Of a stretch of DNA of 64,000 nucleotides, positions 17,500 through 52,549 are shown piece after piece. The DNA is from a virus (lineage: Duplodnaviria; Caudoviricetes): positions 128,001-192,000 of IMG/VR virus record IMGVR_UViG_3300024331_000007. The stretch is one strand, 5' to 3'. The number at the start of each line of letters is the position of its first letter. Within the stretch, counting starts at the first letter, position 1. The notes under the pieces are model-generated. The model had not been told where the DNA came from, ran no database searches, and was given only the letters and a program-made list of their open reading frames with translations. The position numbers were made by a program, and so were the translations under genes.

Positions 17500-18162
17500 A
17501 TGGATATTTACTCCGCAAAATTTTCCCAAGACAAAAAATTTTATGTTTACGAATATCTTCGCGCACATAAATCAAAATATGGTGATATTGGAAGTCCCTA
17601 CTATGTAGGTAAAGGAACTGGTAGTAGAGCGTTTTCAAACGATCATACCACCAAACCGCCAAAAGACAAAAACAATATTCGTGTTTCAAGTTTGATGAAC
17701 GAAGCTGACGCTTTTCAAAACGAAATGTTCAAAATTATGTTGTCGGGCCGTATTGATCTTGGAACTGGTTGCTTACGAAATAGGACTGACGGCGGCGAAG
17801 GTTCGTCTGGAGCAATTCGTACTCAAGATACAATTCGTAAATGCGTAGAAGTTAGAAAACGAAACAATTCTTACAAACGAACTAAAGAAGCAGACAAAAA
17901 AGCCAATGCAACAAAATTTAAAAATGGAACTCATCGTCGTAGCAAAGACTCTCTTATAAAACAAATCAATACTAGGCGAGAAAAAGGTAACTTGAATACC
18001 TGTACTCTTGAAAGTAGAAGAAAATCAGTAGAAACACGAAAAGCAAATGGAACTCTCGGTCGCACCAAGGAATCTATAGCAAAAGGTCTTGCCACACGAA
18101 TATCAAAATATGGCCCATTTGCAAAACCAAAGTTTGAATTGTATTTGCCTTGTATTCTTTAA
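17500..18162 (+). CDS. free-standing GIY-YIG (LEM-3-like) endonuclease
   Basis: FYVYEYLR...PYYVGKG..R, GCLRNRTDGGEG, basic repeat tail; antisense to neighbours. Confidence 0.85.
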   Translation: MDIYSAKFSQDKKFYVYEYLRAHKSKYGDIGSPYYVGKGTGSRAFSNDHTTKPPKDKNNIRVSSLMNEADAFQNEMFKIMLSGRIDLGTGCLRNRTDGGEGSSGAIRTQDTIRKCVEVRKRNNSYKRTKEADKKANATKFKNGTHRRSKDSLIKQINTRREKGNLNTCTLESRRKSVETRKANGTLGRTKESIAKGLATRISKYGPFAKPKFELYLPCIL

Positions 18163-18169
18163 CAAGGAA

Positions 18170-18480
18170 CAAGGCTAAAACCTCGGAGTAGTTTTTAGGC
18201 TACTGGCACCGCTACGCGGTTGAGAGCAACTGTGTAAGTTGCAATCTCGGCATTGCGGCCACTGTTGTTCACAGCAATTATAGTTTCCATTCCCTTAACG
18301 TCAGGCTTGGTACTCGGTTCGTAACTAACGCTATATTTGACCCGTCGAAACCTTGGCACCCACATTTGAAAAACGTAATACATAAATTGGTGTAGGTGGC
18401 GGGAATCGAACCCGCGTCCGAATCAGTATAACGTGAGTCTCTCTCACACGAACGTCATTCGCAAAAACATCTTTACGAAT
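18170..18480 (-). ncRNA. ssrA: circularly permuted (two-piece) tmRNA
   Basis: Acceptor piece first: T-arm GCGGG-TTCGATT-CCCGC then CACCTAC-A-CCA ending at 18388. Then a 24-nt spacer. Coding piece starts at 18363 (GTGGGTG-CCAAGGTTTCGAC). Acceptor stem GTGGGTG/CACCTAC has G3:U70. Inter-piece helices CGGGTCA/TGATTCG, TATAGCG/CGTTATA, ACGAAC/GTTCGT. ATAATT precedes resume codon GCT; tag 18195-18275 = AVNNSGRNAEIATYTVALNRVAVPVA; stop codon lies in a hairpin. Outer ends approximate. Confidence 0.92.
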
Positions 18481-25083: not shown

Positions 25084-26205
25084 TTACTCGCCATCCACAC
25101 GGAATACAGAATCGCCCGAAGGTTCAACCATTTTCCAAATCATTGTATCAATCTTTTTGCCGTCCAACAAACCAAACAAAAGACCTGAATACTTACGATT
25201 TTGTTCCATCGTGAAGTACTCCGCCATCTTCTTACGTGATTCCTTGTAAGGTGTAAATGGGTCAAGTTGAGGGCGATTCACGTAGATCACGTTCACTGCG
25301 TTGTAAATCGCTTCATACTTTTCCGTCAAGGACAAAACAACACCCTTAACCCACGTCTTAAACGTATCAGGCATACGCGCATCTGAAAGCCAACCGTTTA
25401 CGGTTTCCATCTGTCCGTCACGCAACAATTCCCACACAGAACGAACGTTCAAACCCGTCAGAATCTTGTGAAGACGAACATACTCATCAAACTTGACCTT
25501 AACTTTCAGGCCAGTTGAAGGATACGTCAAAACATAACCTTCACGATTCTTGTCATTCTCGGCAAGTGACTCGGAAAGCGTCTTACGATATTCCTTGACG
25601 ACTTCCAAACCCATCGCACGACAATAATCCTTCACATTTGAACGCGAAGCCTCCACACCAGTTTCGATATTCACCGCTCCCAAAATTACCAGACCTTCAA
25701 AATCATAGTCCACGACAATTTTGTTCTCGGAATAAATTACTTCCGAAACAAGCGTATAATCCTTCAGCAACGTCAACGAAGGATATCGCGAACGCAACCA
25801 ATTCGTAGCCCATTCCGCTTGTTCTGAATGGAAAGCACCGCGAGTTGCAACGTGATTTAAACCATCCCACGCGAACATCGTACCCATTGAACCATCCAAC
25901 TTCTCAAGGAAAATTGCCTGTTCCTTCGGCAAGTTTTTCTCTAACGTTTCGGGGTGACGATCATCATTCAGATTCCAAAACTTTGCAAATGGACGCGCAA
26001 CAACCTCATTGTTGTCCATGCAATACACAAGACCGCGAGACAAATTCATCTCGTTACCCCAAATCAGCTTAGGGTCGTACTGTGCTTGCGGCGTATAATT
26101 CAACACTGCCAGAGGATACTGACGGTGAATTTTACGCGAGATGTAGCCTTCGTGAATCAAACGATTCAAGTTCTCCACATCCATGATTTGTGACAACTGA
26201 ATCAT
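25084..26205 (-). CDS. rnlA: RNA ligase, T4 Rnl1-like
   Basis: ARPFAKFWN, adenylation motif EKLDGS, TRG, EGYV, KVKVKFDEY. Confidence 0.88.
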   Translation of the reverse strand: MIQLSQIMDVENLNRLIHEGYISRKIHRQYPLAVLNYTPQAQYDPKLIWGNEMNLSRGLVYCMDNNEVVARPFAKFWNLNDDRHPETLEKNLPKEQAIFLEKLDGSMGTMFAWDGLNHVATRGAFHSEQAEWATNWLRSRYPSLTLLKDYTLVSEVIYSENKIVVDYDFEGLVILGAVNIETGVEASRSNVKDYCRAMGLEVVKEYRKTLSESLAENDKNREGYVLTYPSTGLKVKVKFDEYVRLHKILTGLNVRSVWELLRDGQMETVNGWLSDARMPDTFKTWVKGVVLSLTEKYEAIYNAVNVIYVNRPQLDPFTPYKESRKKMAEYFTMEQNRKYSGLLFGLLDGKKIDTMIWKMVEPSGDSVFRVDGE

Positions 26206-28563: not shown

Positions 28564-28878
28564 TCATTCCGCGTCTTCCTTGATTTCTGCGACCAAGGGA
28601 AAAGACTCAGCGCGAGCCTTTACAATAACCAAATCTCGCAAATGAGAAGCAAGCTCTTTTGTAAGACTATTCACGACTTCGCCCTGTCCGACAGAATCAA
28701 TTCGAGAGGTTATGGCCGCAGCAGCATCATATGGGTGACCAAAAACCTCCATTATAACGCGCACAACAAACTCCGCGCTGGTTACTTCGTCATTAAACAA
28801 AACAACGCTGTAGCGAGGTGGGCGCTTGAGGTCGGTTTCAACTTTTACTTTGGTTAGAATATCGCATGCAGTTGTCAT
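28564..28878 (-). CDS. clpS: ATP-dependent Clp protease adaptor ClpS
   Basis: PPRYSVVLFNDEVT..EFVV..I..VFG...A...G.G.V; adjacent to clpX. Confidence 0.85.
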   Translation of the reverse strand: MTTACDILTKVKVETDLKRPPRYSVVLFNDEVTSAEFVVRVIMEVFGHPYDAAAAITSRIDSVGQGEVVNSLTKELASHLRDLVIVKARAESFPLVAEIKEDAE

Positions 28879-28890
28879 ACTTCAACAATA

Positions 28891-30141
28891 CTACGATTTA
28901 GTCTTTTTGGCAACCGATTTTTTCTCAAATATTTCGATTTTTGGTATTTCCTTTTTATCTACACAGTTGCCGTGAAAAGTAACTTTGGCCACTCTTCGCT
29001 TTTGGTACTCTGGAATAATGTATAAATGTGGTAACATGATGGCGTCACAAATAGATCGAAGACCTCGAACTCCAGTTTTTTCAGTTTTTGCTTGATGTGC
29101 AACTCTTTCCAAAAAGTCGTTGGTAAATTCCAAATCTATCCCATCCACGTTAAAGTAGAATTTGTATTCAGCTAGAATGTTGTTCTTTGCATTAGTAAGA
29201 ACTTCCAAGAGTTCAACTTCAGTTAGCTCTTTTGTGTGGGTTTTCATTGGAAATCTCCCCACAAATTCTGGAATCATACCAAACTCTACGAAATCTTCAG
29301 TGACATATTCGGCATCAAGATTTTGGGTAGCTGCAACTGCGGCATCTCCGAAGCCAAGTCCCTTCTTTTTCTTTAATCGAGTAGTCACAATGTCCGTCAT
29401 TCCGATGAACGCACCACCACAAATGAATAACATATTCGAAGTATTAACTTCCACTACCTTTGGCGCTCTTTTTGAGTCTGGATTTAACGTAACTGGTATG
29501 ACCGTTCCTTCAACCATCTTCAATAATGCAGACTGGATGCCTGATACTTTAGCTTCCGATGCAGTGGCGCGATTCTTCGTAGTGATCTTGTCAATTTCAT
29601 CTATGAACACAATACCATTTTCGGCTGCATTGATGTCACCATTAGCTTCCATTAGCAAGCGTGTGATGATAGTATCAACATTTTGACCAATATATCCAGC
29701 TTCAGTAAGAGTTGTGGCATCTACAGCTATGAAAGGAACATCCAGAAACTTTGCAACGGTACTCACCAGCAGGCTTTTTCCACTTCCACTCGGCCCGGTA
29801 ATCATTAAGTTACTCTTATTCAGATCACTTCCTTCGTGTTCGTAGAGCATCCTCTTATAATGATTTACCACGCTGACGCAAATAGCCATTTTTGCCGTCT
29901 CTTGGCCGATCACAAACTGGTCCATGAACTCTCTAATCTTTATACTATTGAGTTGTTCAACCAATTGCTTCTTTTCTGCCACTTGCGAAGGAACAATCTC
30001 AGACGCAGGGGTGCTCTTGAGCAGGCCGTTGAACAGGATTATGCATTTGTCGCATATCGAGTAGTCACCGCTTACGACCATCTTGAGGCTCTCACCTCTA
30101 CTTTTTTTGCAGAAAGTACATTTGATGGGATTTTTAGTCAT
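28891..30141 (-). CDS. clpX: ATP-dependent Clp protease ATP-binding subunit ClpX
   Basis: C4 Zn domain, VIGQETAK, GPSGSGKS, DATTLTEAGYIG, FIDEIDK, LGF loop, GMIPEFVGR, TGVRGLRS. Confidence 0.93.
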   Translation of the reverse strand: MTKNPIKCTFCKKSRGESLKMVVSGDYSICDKCIILFNGLLKSTPASEIVPSQVAEKKQLVEQLNSIKIREFMDQFVIGQETAKMAICVSVVNHYKRMLYEHEGSDLNKSNLMITGPSGSGKSLLVSTVAKFLDVPFIAVDATTLTEAGYIGQNVDTIITRLLMEANGDINAAENGIVFIDEIDKITTKNRATASEAKVSGIQSALLKMVEGTVIPVTLNPDSKRAPKVVEVNTSNMLFICGGAFIGMTDIVTTRLKKKKGLGFGDAAVAATQNLDAEYVTEDFVEFGMIPEFVGRFPMKTHTKELTEVELLEVLTNAKNNILAEYKFYFNVDGIDLEFTNDFLERVAHQAKTEKTGVRGLRSICDAIMLPHLYIIPEYQKRRVAKVTFHGNCVDKKEIPKIEIFEKKSVAKKTKS

Positions 30142-30405: not shown

Positions 30406-30951
30406 TTAGGGTTTCAATTTGGCTTTGCGCCTAATAGCGCGGAAGGTAGCCCTTCTAGCCTTTTTGACGGCCTTTTCAATGCGGTGTTCCTTGCGAACAG
30501 AGGACCATTTGTAGGAAAAACGCTTTCTAATGTAGTTCAGGGTATGAAATACTGGCTCATTCCCATTTATTCCATCCGAAACAACCAACAAACCAACACA
30601 TTCTGCTTTTGGCGCAAAATCTTTTACCTCGTAATAGATATTTGCTGCTGTTTCGCCAGATTCAACGAAGTCATCAACTATAACATAGCGTTTTGACTTT
30701 GAAAATCCCTCGACTCTGGATACGCTGTGAGATGTTGCCTCTCTTTTGCGAACCATTATAAGGTTTTTCTTGAGTTTTGTGGCAATAATAGGCGCAATGA
30801 TAGCTCCGCTCATTCCACGGAATGCAATGGAGTCAAAATTTTTCTTTGGAAGTATTCGGATGGCGTTATTGATTAGATGGCGCAGTTTCAGCGGAGTTAA
30901 AAGATACGCCAAATAAGGTGAAACAATATTATGAACCGGGCGTCTGGGCAT
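30406..30951 (-). CDS. type I phosphoribosyltransferase-like protein
   Basis: PRPP-binding motif YVIVDDFVESGET. Confidence 0.75.
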   Translation of the reverse strand: MPRRPVHNIVSPYLAYLLTPLKLRHLINNAIRILPKKNFDSIAFRGMSGAIIAPIIATKLKKNLIMVRKREATSHSVSRVEGFSKSKRYVIVDDFVESGETAANIYYEVKDFAPKAECVGLLVVSDGINGNEPVFHTLNYIRKRFSYKWSSVRKEHRIEKAVKKARRATFRAIRRKAKLKP

Positions 30952-30954
30952 GCG

Positions 30955-31698
30955 TTACTTTAATTTAACCAACACGGCTGTTGAATTATCATCTCGCTGA
31001 ATATTCGCCATTGCTTTCACTAAGTCTTCCGCATCAGCACCCTTTTCAATAAAATCTACAACAATTGGAAGGGTATCTCCAGCAATATGAGACGGGTCCA
31101 TAAGACCATCGGAACAGATTAGAATCCAACTGTTCTCGTTCACAGGAATGTGAAAGATTTCAGGTTCACGTAGGAGAACTCGATTTAAATCCCTATCTCC
31201 CAATGCGCGACTCATTTGAAGTCCCGGTCCATCAATTTGCCATTTGTCAAATAGGTAACCGTTGACGCTTATTTTGCCGCCACGCGCTTCGGCTGCTTGA
31301 GCTTCCGCCAAATTTGTTCGAACATTGTGTTCTGGAGACTTCCAGATTTGTCCGTTCGCATCCTTTATGATAACTGGACTATCGCCCAAAACTGCAATAT
31401 GAGCAACGTTATCCTTCAACCACACGATGCTTGCTGAGGAACCACAGGTATGATCGTTTGTTAACGATGCTAATTTGTTATAAATTTGAAGTAGTGTTGA
31501 ATCTGGGTCTTTCTTTGTTTCTTTAGAAAGTGAATGAAACTCGCGAGGTGCTGCCGACGATGCAATTTCTGCTACCCATTTACCGCCGTGTCCGTCGAAC
31601 ACGCCAAGAAGAACTCCAACTGTTTTCGTTATTTTGAAAAAGGATCGGTCTTCTTGGTATGCTCTACGATTTTGTGCTGAAAATTGTGTTACTTCCAT
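30955..31698 (-). CDS. PP2C-family protein Ser/Thr phosphatase
   Basis: RAYQED, GVFDGHGG, VLGDS, MSRALGD, LICSDGL, DDNST. Confidence 0.9.
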   Translation of the reverse strand: MEVTQFSAQNRRAYQEDRSFFKITKTVGVLLGVFDGHGGKWVAEIASSAAPREFHSLSKETKKDPDSTLLQIYNKLASLTNDHTCGSSASIVWLKDNVAHIAVLGDSPVIIKDANGQIWKSPEHNVRTNLAEAQAAEARGGKISVNGYLFDKWQIDGPGLQMSRALGDRDLNRVLLREPEIFHIPVNENSWILICSDGLMDPSHIAGDTLPIVVDFIEKGADAEDLVKAMANIQRDDNSTAVLVKLK

Positions 31699-49946: not shown

Positions 49947-50693
49947 ATGCCTATTTACTCTGCAAAATATTCACAACTCAAAGAGTTCTACGTCTACAAA
50001 TATCTTCGTTCGCGAAAATCCAAATTTGGTGAAATCGATAGTCCGTATAATATCGGCAAAGGTAAGGGGAAACGCGCTTTCTCTAAACAGCATACTATAA
50101 AACCACCCAAAGATAAATCAAAAATTCAATTTATCTCGGAAAATATGAATGAGGCCGATGCCTTTCAACTTGAAATGCTACTCATTCATTGGTTTGGCAG
50201 AATCAACAAAGGAACTGGTTCTCTTCGCAATATGACAGAAGGCGGAACTGGTTGTACGGGAACTGTTATTTCCGCCGAAACTAGAAAAATACAATCTCTA
50301 CAACGAGCAAATAAAATGTGGGTCAATGATGGCAATAAACAACTATTGATTCGCCCAAATTTATTCCGTCAATATAAACAAAAAGGTTATAAAAATGGTA
50401 TGTTGAAATCTTCAGTGAAAGAGCTTGTTTGGATGCATGATCCTAAAACAATGAAATCTACAATGGTCAAAATTTCAAATATTTCTTCGTGTATCTCCAA
50501 AGGTTACATTTTAGGTAGACCCTCTCCATCGGAAGAAACAAGAACAAGGATCAGCAAATCTACTAAAGGAAAGCAAATTACACAAACTCACAAAGACAAT
50601 ATAAGAAAATCTAAGCTTGGAAAGAAACGAAGCGCAGAAGCCTGTAAACGAATTAGCGAAGGAATAATCGCAGCCAAGAAACGCAAACTCTAA
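49947..50693 (+). CDS. free-standing GIY-YIG (LEM-3-like) endonuclease
   Basis: FYVYKYLR...PYNIGKGKG.R, GSLRNMTEGG.G, NUMOD-like tail. Confidence 0.85.
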   Translation: MPIYSAKYSQLKEFYVYKYLRSRKSKFGEIDSPYNIGKGKGKRAFSKQHTIKPPKDKSKIQFISENMNEADAFQLEMLLIHWFGRINKGTGSLRNMTEGGTGCTGTVISAETRKIQSLQRANKMWVNDGNKQLLIRPNLFRQYKQKGYKNGMLKSSVKELVWMHDPKTMKSTMVKISNISSCISKGYILGRPSPSEETRTRISKSTKGKQITQTHKDNIRKSKLGKKRSAEACKRISEGIIAAKKRKL

Positions 50694-51352
50694 ATTCCGT
50701 ATTGCTTTTGGGTCATGGTTTTTACTGGTTTTCTAACGGCAATCATTTTTGCTTTATGAAACTGCACATTGACCGTATCCCAGTTTACAACATTCCACCA
50801 AGCAGCAAGATATTCGTCTCTTTTATTCAAATACTGCCAAAGATACGCATGTTCCCATAAATCGATACCAATAATAGGAACGTCGCCATTCGTTAATGGG
50901 CTATCTTGGTTCGGCAACGACACAATTTCCAGCTTGTCTTTCGGATAGATGAGCCAAACCCAACCAGAACCAAATCTCTTTGTGCCAGCCTCGTTAAACT
51001 TTTTCTTGAACTTGTCAAATGTGCCAAAGTCTTTTGTGATTTGTTTGGCAATGTCTCCAGTTGGAGGACCTCCGCCTTTTGGCTTCATGAGATTCCAAAA
51101 CAAGGTATGATTTGCATCTCCGCCGCCTTGATTGCGCACTGCATCCTGAATAGCCTTTGGCATTTTCTTCCAATTGGTTACCAGAATCTCTGGCGAATAC
51201 TTCTGATACTTTGGATAATCCTTTAATGCTTCATTCAGCTTGTCAACATATGCTTGATGATGCTTATCGTGATGCAGCTTCATGATTTCCTCACTGATAT
51301 GAGGTTCAAGAGCGTTGTATGCGTATGAAAGTTCAGGTAGTTTGTATGCCAT
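50690..51352 (-). CDS. sodA: Fe/Mn superoxide dismutase
   Basis: LPELSYAYNALEPHIS, HHDKHH, NHTLFW, FGSGWVWL, DLWEHAY; all four metal ligands present. Confidence 0.95.
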   Translation of the reverse strand: MAYKLPELSYAYNALEPHISEEIMKLHHDKHHQAYVDKLNEALKDYPKYQKYSPEILVTNWKKMPKAIQDAVRNQGGGDANHTLFWNLMKPKGGGPPTGDIAKQITKDFGTFDKFKKKFNEAGTKRFGSGWVWLIYPKDKLEIVSLPNQDSPLTNGDVPIIGIDLWEHAYLWQYLNKRDEYLAAWWNVVNWDTVNVQFHKAKMIAVRKPVKTMTQKQYGI

Positions 51353-51985: not shown

Positions 51986-52549
51986 TTAATAAAATTCCAC
52001 CACTTGATCGGCAAGTCCGTACTTTACGGCTTCCTTTGCCGTCAACCAAACATCTTGCGGTGGAAGCAAATACTTTTTTATCTGTGGTTCTGTTAGACCT
52101 GTGCAAAGTTTGATATGAGTCATTACGCGCTGCGTTGCATTATTGAACTCAGTAACCTTGGCCATCAGTTCATGTTCTTTACCGTGCGATCCCCACGAAA
52201 ACTGGTGTGACAGAATCGCAGTGTTTCTTGTGATGAACCGCTTTCCCTTAGTTCCAGCGATGAACGCGAACAATCCAGCACTGCTAATTTGTCCCAATCC
52301 ATATGTACAGATCGGAACGCGGCTTCCTTTCATAGTATCAATTAATGCGAAACAGCTTGGCATTTCTCCACCCGCTGAATTGAAAATCATCTTCATCATT
52401 TTCGGCGGTGTGTCCATAAGATTGCGTTGAAGGATAAACGTTATCGCCTCGCCAGTTGAGCTAGGGTCAAAATCCTTGTTGAAAAGAAAATAGTGGTGAT
52501 CTTCTAATGTTGGGATGTTTGGAACTTTAACATCTTCTTGTAGGCCCAA
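51986..52549 (-). CDS. clpP: ClpP-family protease subunit
   Basis: FNSAGG, GQISSAG (catalytic Ser), SHQ (His), D.WLTAKEAVKYGLADQV. Confidence 0.85.
   Translation of the reverse strand: MGLQEDVKVPNIPTLEDHHYFLFNKDFDPSSTGEAITFILQRNLMDTPPKMMKMIFNSAGGEMPSCFALIDTMKGSRVPICTYGLGQISSAGLFAFIAGTKGKRFITRNTAILSHQFSWGSHGKEHELMAKVTEFNNATQRVMTHIKLCTGLTEPQIKKYLLPPQDVWLTAKEAVKYGLADQVVEFY

Follow-up and report, generated by a model that had tools for sequence, protein, structure and literature searches.

Substrate choice by AAA+ proteases is understood mainly from Escherichia coli ClpX and the Ala-Ala end of its ssrA tag. E. coli ClpX holds the terminal Ala-Ala-COO- through Tyr153 and Val154 of the pore-1 loop, Thr199 and Val202 of the pore-2 loop, and Arg228 and His230 of the RKH loop, and single changes at the contact residues Thr199, Val202 or His230 strongly raise the Michaelis constant (KM) (Fei et al. 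2020, PMC7652416). For C-terminal degrons in E. coli, a terminal Ala-Ala proved critical in an unbiased screen (PMC10862746). In human mitochondrial ClpX, the RKH and pore-2 determinants are both missing, and ssrA substrates are not degraded (Martin et al. 2008, cited in PMC7652416). The ClpX described here is encoded by a tailed virus (Caudoviricetes) that also carries a transfer-messenger RNA (tmRNA) gene; its ssrA-reading loops are rebuilt, and the tag encoded by the tmRNA lacks the Ala-Ala end. The gene lies in a stretch of 64,000 nucleotides (the window), corresponding to bases 128001-192000 of the 359,890-bp IMG/VR virus record IMGVR_UViG_3300024331_000007, which has an estimated completeness of 90%.

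In Mycoplasma/Mesoplasma, the ssrA tag is read by Lon, and the mf-ssrA/mf-Lon pair is used in E. coli for orthogonal degradation (PMC9382460). ClpX, ClpP, ClpS and ClpA of jumbo phages have already been described (Iyer et al. 2021, PMC7824862), and phage tmRNAs are known as well, among them the two-piece tmRNA of Melnitz (PMC9004378), those of huge phages (PMC7162821), those in PMC4131195 and that of Bacillus phage G (PMC12484599). The components are known singly, and a literature search found no paper linking tmRNA tag ends with phage ClpX loops. The most likely reading of a derived-loop ClpX combined with an altered tag, which we hold tentatively, is that the phage ClpXP may have been retargeted or relaxed away from Ala-Ala degrons.

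By every sequence test applied, the 416-residue protein is a genuine ClpX with intact motor and docking motifs. It scores above the cut-offs of two NCBIfam equivalog models (NF003745, 402.3 against 359; TIGR00382, 371.2 against 370.75, the second barely), and Pfam matches both zf-C4_ClpX and AAA_2. Its best match in the PDB is the solved E. coli ClpX (E 3e-93; residues 6-401 align), with 39% identity over aligned columns. Aligned to this structure, the phage protein contains a single AAA+ module with Walker A (GPSGSGKS) at residue 116, Walker B (IDEID) at residue 180, and the sensor-2-type GxRGLR motif, present as GVRGLR, at residue 357. Comparison with 31 relatives shows that G263 and F264 of the docking loop and C30 and C33 of the zinc finger are invariant, while C8 and C11 are at least 90% conserved. 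An automatic gene call begins the protein at Met21, behind a Shine-Dalgarno-like GAGGTGA (30081-30141 (-)), which would remove half of the zinc finger. Because residues 1-20, including the zinc-finger residues Cys8 and Cys11, are conserved in the 31 relatives, the start was instead assigned to the ATG at 30141, 2 nt past the stop of a preceding 65-aa open reading frame (ORF).

The elements that read the ssrA end in E. coli are altered in this protein (Table 1). Its pore-2 loop aligns with the longer E. coli sequence RKSDNPSITRDVSGEG, and the E. coli segment GGRKHP has become PDSKRAP. In the RKH equivalent, the Lys of RKH is retained and followed by a basic residue; positive charge stays, and Arg228 and His230 are gone. 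Taken in order, the six ssrA-contact positions read Y, I, A, A, S and R, a set that is not of the ssrA-reading type. Four of these six residues are replaced throughout the clade of relatives described below (V154I, V202, R228 and H230), and the phage protein has Ala at a fifth, T199. Among 83 canonical ClpX sequences, nearly all carry RDVSGEGVQQ in pore-2, and the loops belong to the best conserved segments. An earlier note on this DNA had claimed that the ATPase motifs, a GYIG pore-1 and an LGF docking loop are kept, that pore-2 is replaced and shortened by two residues, and that RKH has become SKRAP; alignment to the solved E. coli ClpX bears out each of these points, with the nuance that Lys229 and the basic residue after it persist.

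These changes are not confined to one genome. A protein search recovered about 35 metagenomic ClpX sequences with 50-88% identity to the phage protein, and the next matches fall to 46% or less. All of the approximately 35 relatives contain GYIGQ/E in pore-1, the pore-2 skeleton K-x-R...[DE]-x-[KR]-[VI]-[SA]-G-[IV]-Q, an RKH region cut to [DE]-x-K-[RK], and KKKK ahead of [LIM]GF. At the Val154 position, 34 of 35 clade members have Ile, and 81 of 83 other ClpX have Val. No clade member has Val at the Val202 position, Arg at the Arg200 position or a basic residue at the Arg228 position; Lys229 persists, and Arg or Lys takes the place of His230. Because the derived loops are common to the roughly 35 relatives of one clade, the loop change is more than chance. 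In a quick maximum-likelihood tree, these relatives form a single clade (Shimodaira–Hasegawa-like approximate likelihood ratio test, SH-aLRT, 100) on the longest inner branch (0.77 changes per site), and the nearest outgroups have canonical-like loops. This topology indicates that the loops changed once, in a burst. No cultured or named member of the clade was found in the collections searched, and the phage collection searched contained no DNA-level relatives of the record.

The loops have also evolved differently since then. Mean pairwise identity over the whole protein is 63% in the clade and 62% in the canonical set; at this matched overall divergence, pore-2 retains 42% identity in the clade versus 74% in the canonical set, and the RKH region, hypervariable in the clade, 22% versus 48%. 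The Thr199-, Val202- and Arg228-equivalent positions rank among the clade's most variable sites. From these alignments, the faster loop evolution looks more like the outcome of relaxed or shifting constraint, under which it would be expected, than like a finely tuned new pocket, for which it would be expected less.

The tmRNA gene is circularly permuted, and its acceptor stem, taken from the Rfam alignment, contains a G3-U70 pair of the alanine type. Three relatives (G001, G003 and a 233-kb Logan contig), whose ClpX proteins are 67-69% identical, have an orthologous tmRNA gene downstream of clpX, at a distance of 10-11 kb. Decoding of the relatives' tags through alignment with the window tmRNA made four clade members readable. 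Their tags comprise 23-28 residues and end in ...VAVPVA, ...VNVPVLA, ...IRVPVMA and ...RELVLA; an Ala-Ala end occurs in none of the four, and the reading frame, the terminal Ala codon and the UAA are conserved in all four. The -VPVA end that the earlier note had ascribed to the window tag is thereby borne out (ARAGORN tag VAVPVA; Rfam RF04321). An inner E-I-A-T-Y motif is present in three of the four tags (E-I-A-T-Y-x-V; orthologues in L093 and L250), and G003 has E-V-Y-T-H at this place. By analogy with the SspB-binding head of ssrA, this inner motif could be a candidate adaptor- or protease-binding site.

Further clade tags were sought in several ways. A metagenome scan anchored on the T4 Rnl1-like RNA ligase gene, which lies between clpX and the tmRNA, yielded seven loci with a clade ClpX, and a tmRNA only on the already known G001 contig. 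A tag-specific pattern returned G001 alone, and a generic two-piece tmRNA pattern in IMG/VR returned, among the matches listed, mostly unrelated tmRNAs. Within 18 kb of the subclade B loci, no tmRNA was detected, nor was one detected in the record G004 (99.6 kb, probably a fragment), which encodes a derived-loop ClpX and was searched with two Rfam models and a custom one. A G004 candidate suggested by the custom covariance model (25 bits) was rejected as a tRNA-Pro.

A search of the 360-kb record (estimated 90% complete) for SmpB, SspB and Lon found none of them; for SmpB, there was no PF01668 match. Since the phage genome lacks SmpB, trans-translation with the phage tmRNA must use the SmpB of the host. 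Without Ala-Ala in the tag, the products of the phage tmRNA would be uncoupled from canonical ClpX reading. Because the E. coli screen found terminal Ala-Ala to be critical, the phage tag is probably a poor substrate of canonical host ClpXP, with E. coli as the yardstick, from which the ClpXP of the actual host may differ. Candidate readers of the new tag are the phage ClpX, a ClpA-like ATPase of the phage, and host Lon, FtsH or Tsp.

If the phage ClpXP was retargeted or relaxed away from Ala-Ala degrons, the events could have been as follows. The clade would be carried by uncultured jumbo T4-like phages of soil and peat, with a working ClpX unfoldase inside a conserved gene module. In the clade ancestor, the pocket for Ala-Ala-COO- would have been dismantled by a two-residue deletion in pore-2, by loss of V202, R228 and H230, and by the change of V154 to Ile. 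ClpX most likely docks via its LGF loop on the phage ClpP-like peptidase and degrades proteins during infection, and its substrates would presumably then be chosen via an adaptor, the zinc-finger N-domain or other termini. The tmRNA tag of this lineage would have given up Ala-Ala and turned into a long tag that has a conserved motif inside and ends in hydrophobic-Ala. Several observations weigh against this account. Ser or Thr stands at the T199-like position in 24 of 35 clade members, and the alignment over the two-residue indel is ambiguous, which affects the T199 and V202 positions. The ClpP-like protein falls below the NCBIfam ClpP cut-offs (best 86 bits versus 249), and its N-terminus is shorter, unrelated and without canonical axial loops. 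In addition, both the pore-2 skeleton and the tag end (Ala and UAA in 4/4) are conserved, which makes a specific new fit between them possible.

Such a fit is the core of the strongest rival explanation, which is possible if doubtful: tag and reader would form a matched private pair, with host ClpXP reading the phage tag poorly and the loops of the phage ClpX reading it and feeding the phage ClpP. In favour of a matched pair, the Ala-Ala of the tag and the contact residues of ClpX were lost in the same lineage, and a comparison across phages points in the same direction. The comparison set consisted of 50 other IMG/VR records with ClpX, of records reached via the ClpP family, and of named phages. 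Eight of the 50 IMG/VR records combine a permuted tmRNA with canonical pore-2 and RK[H/N] loops, and their tags end in -LAA or -MAA. Records G055, G051 and G058, reached via the ClpP family, have canonical loops and tags ending in -LAA or -VAA, and canonical loops likewise go with Ala-Ala tags in Sinorhizobium phage Phosso (-LAA) and Lak-B5 (-MAA). Tags without Ala-Ala are present in 4/4 derived-loop phages versus 0/13 of these canonical-loop records (about 10 lineages). In other phages, the same ClpP family accompanies ClpX with canonical loops and tags ending in Ala-Ala, so the change in the loops goes with the tag rather than with the peptidase. The conservation of the tag end (V-P-V-[L/M]-A or L-V-L-A, with Ala and UAA in 4/4) implies for this explanation that something reads the tag, and the clade-specific pore-2 skeleton is retained, with the Val154 to Ile change almost fixed. 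A host search by tag motif across 185,579 species genomes produced six chance matches and no tmRNA; the motif is found in the tmRNA of no representative bacterial genome, which also favours a pair private to the phage.

Against a matched pair stands the fact that the association between loops and tags is a single phylogenetic contrast, that is, one co-transition and not repeated covariation. The tag of Bacillus phage G ends in -ELQVA, yet pore-1, pore-2 and RKH of its ClpX are fully canonical (see also PMC12484599). The T199-, V202- and R228-equivalent positions are highly variable in the clade while the tag end is stable, and the derived-loop ClpX of G004 and of the subclade B loci comes without a detected tmRNA within the limits given above. 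Loss of RKH recurs in other phage ClpX lineages (PA5oct, L035, L073 and L362), and no tmRNA was found in those records, a pattern that also speaks for retargeting. Finally, the phage has no SmpB of its own, and its ClpA-like ATPase is an alternative reader. The earlier note had named co-occurrence and covariation of tag end and loops across related phages as a check; the co-occurrence stands, and the covariation reduces to one transition, to which phage G is a counter-example. It had also proposed a private system of ribosome rescue and proteolysis, the parts of which do coexist in one genome, while the missing SmpB, the possible ClpA-like reader and phage G speak against it. A clade-wide, co-evolved and orthogonal pair of degron and reader, with which the phage, independently of the host, would dispose of rescue products or selectively retain them, is in our estimation unlikely.

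Ordinary divergence would require neither retargeting nor a private pair: the phage ClpX would still accept short hydrophobic C-termini, whether they end in Ala-Ala or in hydrophobic-Ala, host ClpXP would degrade the phage tag too, and the loop differences would be lineage noise. The retention of a terminal Ala-COO- in the tag and of the pore-1 Tyr, Lys229 and the neighbouring basic residue in ClpX is in line with this idea, as are the drift of the loop sequences inside the clade and the occurrence of a -VA end alongside a canonical ClpX in phage G. We nevertheless consider it improbable. The loops are among the best conserved segments of the 83 canonical ClpX sequences, the T199, V202 and H230 changes in E. 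coli raise KM, and human ClpX, which is without these determinants, spares ssrA substrates (PMC7652416). Moreover, the change occurred on a long stem branch and was then retained by about 35 descendants.

The partner peptidase offers a further explanation. An adaptation of pore-2 to the divergent phage ClpP, unrelated to degron reading, is very improbable: E. coli ClpX pore-2 loops also contact the N-terminal loops of ClpP, and the phage ClpP-like protein has no canonical N-terminal axial-loop segment, but records G051, G052, G053, G058 and G055 pair the same short-N-terminus ClpP family (46-47% identity) with ClpX having canonical pore-2 and RKH or RKN, and a fit to the odd ClpP N-terminus was rejected as the main cause for this reason.

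The ClpP-like protein itself shares 32% identity with E. coli ClpP, and its Ser, His and Asp residues align with the catalytic triad; across 31 family members, this triad does not vary. The family comprises 590 homologues, of which the best 120 share 65-73% identity, and has a conserved C-terminal E-F-Y. Of eight large viral records that encode a member of this ClpP family, six encode ClpX too, and both are present on the 233-kb Logan contig. In record G056, the ClpP-like gene directly follows a divergent clpX. A role as prohead protease is unlikely, given 86 bits for ClpP models versus 44 for a head-maturation model, and non-structural neighbours. An ORF at 50690-51352 (-), named by eye from its translation as Fe/Mn superoxide dismutase-like, adjoins the ClpP-like gene. 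A prediction, run with alignments, of a complex between the ClpX AAA+ module (residues 60-416) and a pair of ClpP-like chains gave a score of 0.00, which counts neither for nor against an interaction.

The surroundings of clpX are conserved as well. Gene order in the relatives is PP2C - PRTase - ClpX - (Hsp20) - ClpS - HTH (HTH_39), and the HSP20 gene, present between clpX and clpS in most relatives (L128 and L251 among them), is missing at this place in the window and in L127, the 233-kb Logan relative. As judged from this synteny, PP2C - PRTase - ClpX - Hsp20 - ClpS - HTH_39 has the appearance of a conserved cassette for phage proteostasis. In three phage ClpS proteins compared (window; L250:1721-2032; L251:3018-3329), His66 of E. 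coli ClpS is replaced by Asp and Met40 by Ala, Val or Ser, and Asn34, Asp35 and Thr38 are retained; the preference of the N-degron pocket may have changed. Together with ClpX, ClpS and the ClpP-like peptidase, the phage genome encodes a ClpA-like ATPase with 35% identity to E. coli ClpA, in which the IGL docking loop is replaced by SGF. ClpS has a conventional partner, since this ATPase is encoded in the same genome, and a pairing of ClpS with ClpX for want of ClpA or ClpC was rejected on account of the 769-aa gene.

Of the accessory genes named in the earlier note, the ClpP at 51986 was recovered as a ClpP-like gene with an intact triad (PF00574, 98 bits), and ClpS was confirmed, beside ClpX (PF02617, 65 bits). 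For the Pth2-like enzyme, the ORF exists and its Pfam match is weak (24.7 bits versus 23). Outside the window, at G000:C1:24352-25279 in the large tRNA block of the phage, ARAGORN detects two tRNAs with a CUA anticodon and one with UUA (suppressor-type). The ORFs of ClpX, ClpS and ClpP are open under the standard code.

Table 1. Features of the phage ClpX locus and associated genes; positions refer to the window unless another sequence is named.
Feature	Position	Strand	Evidence or remark
ClpX, AAA+ unfoldase of the derived-loop jumbo-phage clade, 416 aa	28891..30141	(-)	ORF, NCBIfam and PDB match
N-terminal C4 zinc finger (Cys8, Cys11, Cys30, Cys33)	30043..30120	(-)	PF06689, 32.5 bits (cut-off 27)
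Pore-1 loop GYIG (E. coli GYVG), residues 149-152	29686..29697	(-)	alignment
Pore-2 loop TKNRATASEAKVSG	29539..29580	(-)	alignment; two residues shorter than E. coli
RKH-loop equivalent SKRAP	29461..29475	(-)	alignment
LGF tripeptide, ClpP-docking IGF-type loop, KKKK before it	29350..29358	(-)	residues 262-264
ClpS-like adaptor, 104 aa, directly downstream of clpX	28564..28878	(-)	PF02617, 65 bits
PRTase-like and PP2C phosphatase genes, upstream of clpX also in relatives	30406..31698	(-)	Pfam
T4 Rnl1-like RNA ligase, synteny anchor between clpX and tmRNA	25084..26205	(-)	
Circularly permuted (two-piece) tmRNA gene	18104..18480	(-)	ARAGORN; Rfam RF04321, 87.1 bits (cut-off 47)
Tag frame, 26 codons and UAA, ends ...VAVPVA	18195..18275	(-)	ARAGORN and alignment
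ClpP-like serine peptidase, 187 aa, short non-canonical N-terminus	51986..52549	(-)	PF00574, 98 bits
PTH2-like ORF, 155 aa	54418..54885	(-)	weak: PF01981, 24.7 bits (cut-off 23)
ClpA-like double-AAA+ ATPase with Clp_N, 769 aa	G000:C1:319665-321974, outside window	(+)	best model TIGR02639

The clade of about 35 sequences represents a natural experiment, in which motor and docking are intact, the recognition pocket is rebuilt, and a tag without Ala-Ala is encoded in the same genomes. It poses the question whether reader and tag co-evolved or whether ribosome rescue was merely uncoupled from ClpX. A matched pair would be the first natural case of ClpX degron specificity re-coded together with the tag, and would provide a new orthogonal degradation system for synthetic biology as well as a new way for phages to control host-cell proteostasis. 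If the pair is not matched, the clade would still show that phage ClpX has repeatedly shed ssrA reading, pointing to other targets at the time of infection. Tag reading by a phage ClpXP could be examined in a cultured phage, Bacillus phage G, whose genome (JN638751.1) has adjacent clpP and clpX genes at 187784-189744 and a tmRNA at 412060-412371.

The phage set resembles the E. coli ClpXP/ssrA system in the zinc-finger N-domain, the single AAA+ module, the aromatic-hydrophobic pore-1 loop and the IGF-type loop of ClpX, in its Ser-His-Asp peptidase partner, and in a tmRNA tag with a terminal Ala encoded in the same genome. It differs from it in the clade-wide replacement of V154, V202, R228 and H230, in Ala at T199 and a pore-2 loop shorter by two residues, in a tag that reaches 23-28 residues in the clade and has a hydrophobic-Ala end, in the lack of SspB, and in a ClpP-like protein without N-terminal loops. 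Human ClpX is likewise a natural ClpX that has kept its motor and docking motifs and lost the readers of Ala-Ala-COO-, although it belongs to another lineage, has Leu at both positions, and works in an organelle without tmRNA, whereas the phage has a tmRNA with an altered tag. Loop swaps have previously conferred ssrA recognition on human ClpX. Phage G, the Lak phages and Sinorhizobium phage Phosso also encode both ClpX and tmRNA, but in their ClpX proteins pore-2 is canonical and the RKH loop reads RKH or RKN. In nature, the nearest counterpart is the mf-ssrA/mf-Lon system, in which the tag became long and lost its Ala-Ala and its reader changed. There, ClpXP is absent and Lon took over, whereas the phage retains an altered ClpX, encodes no Lon, and carries the whole set in its own genome.

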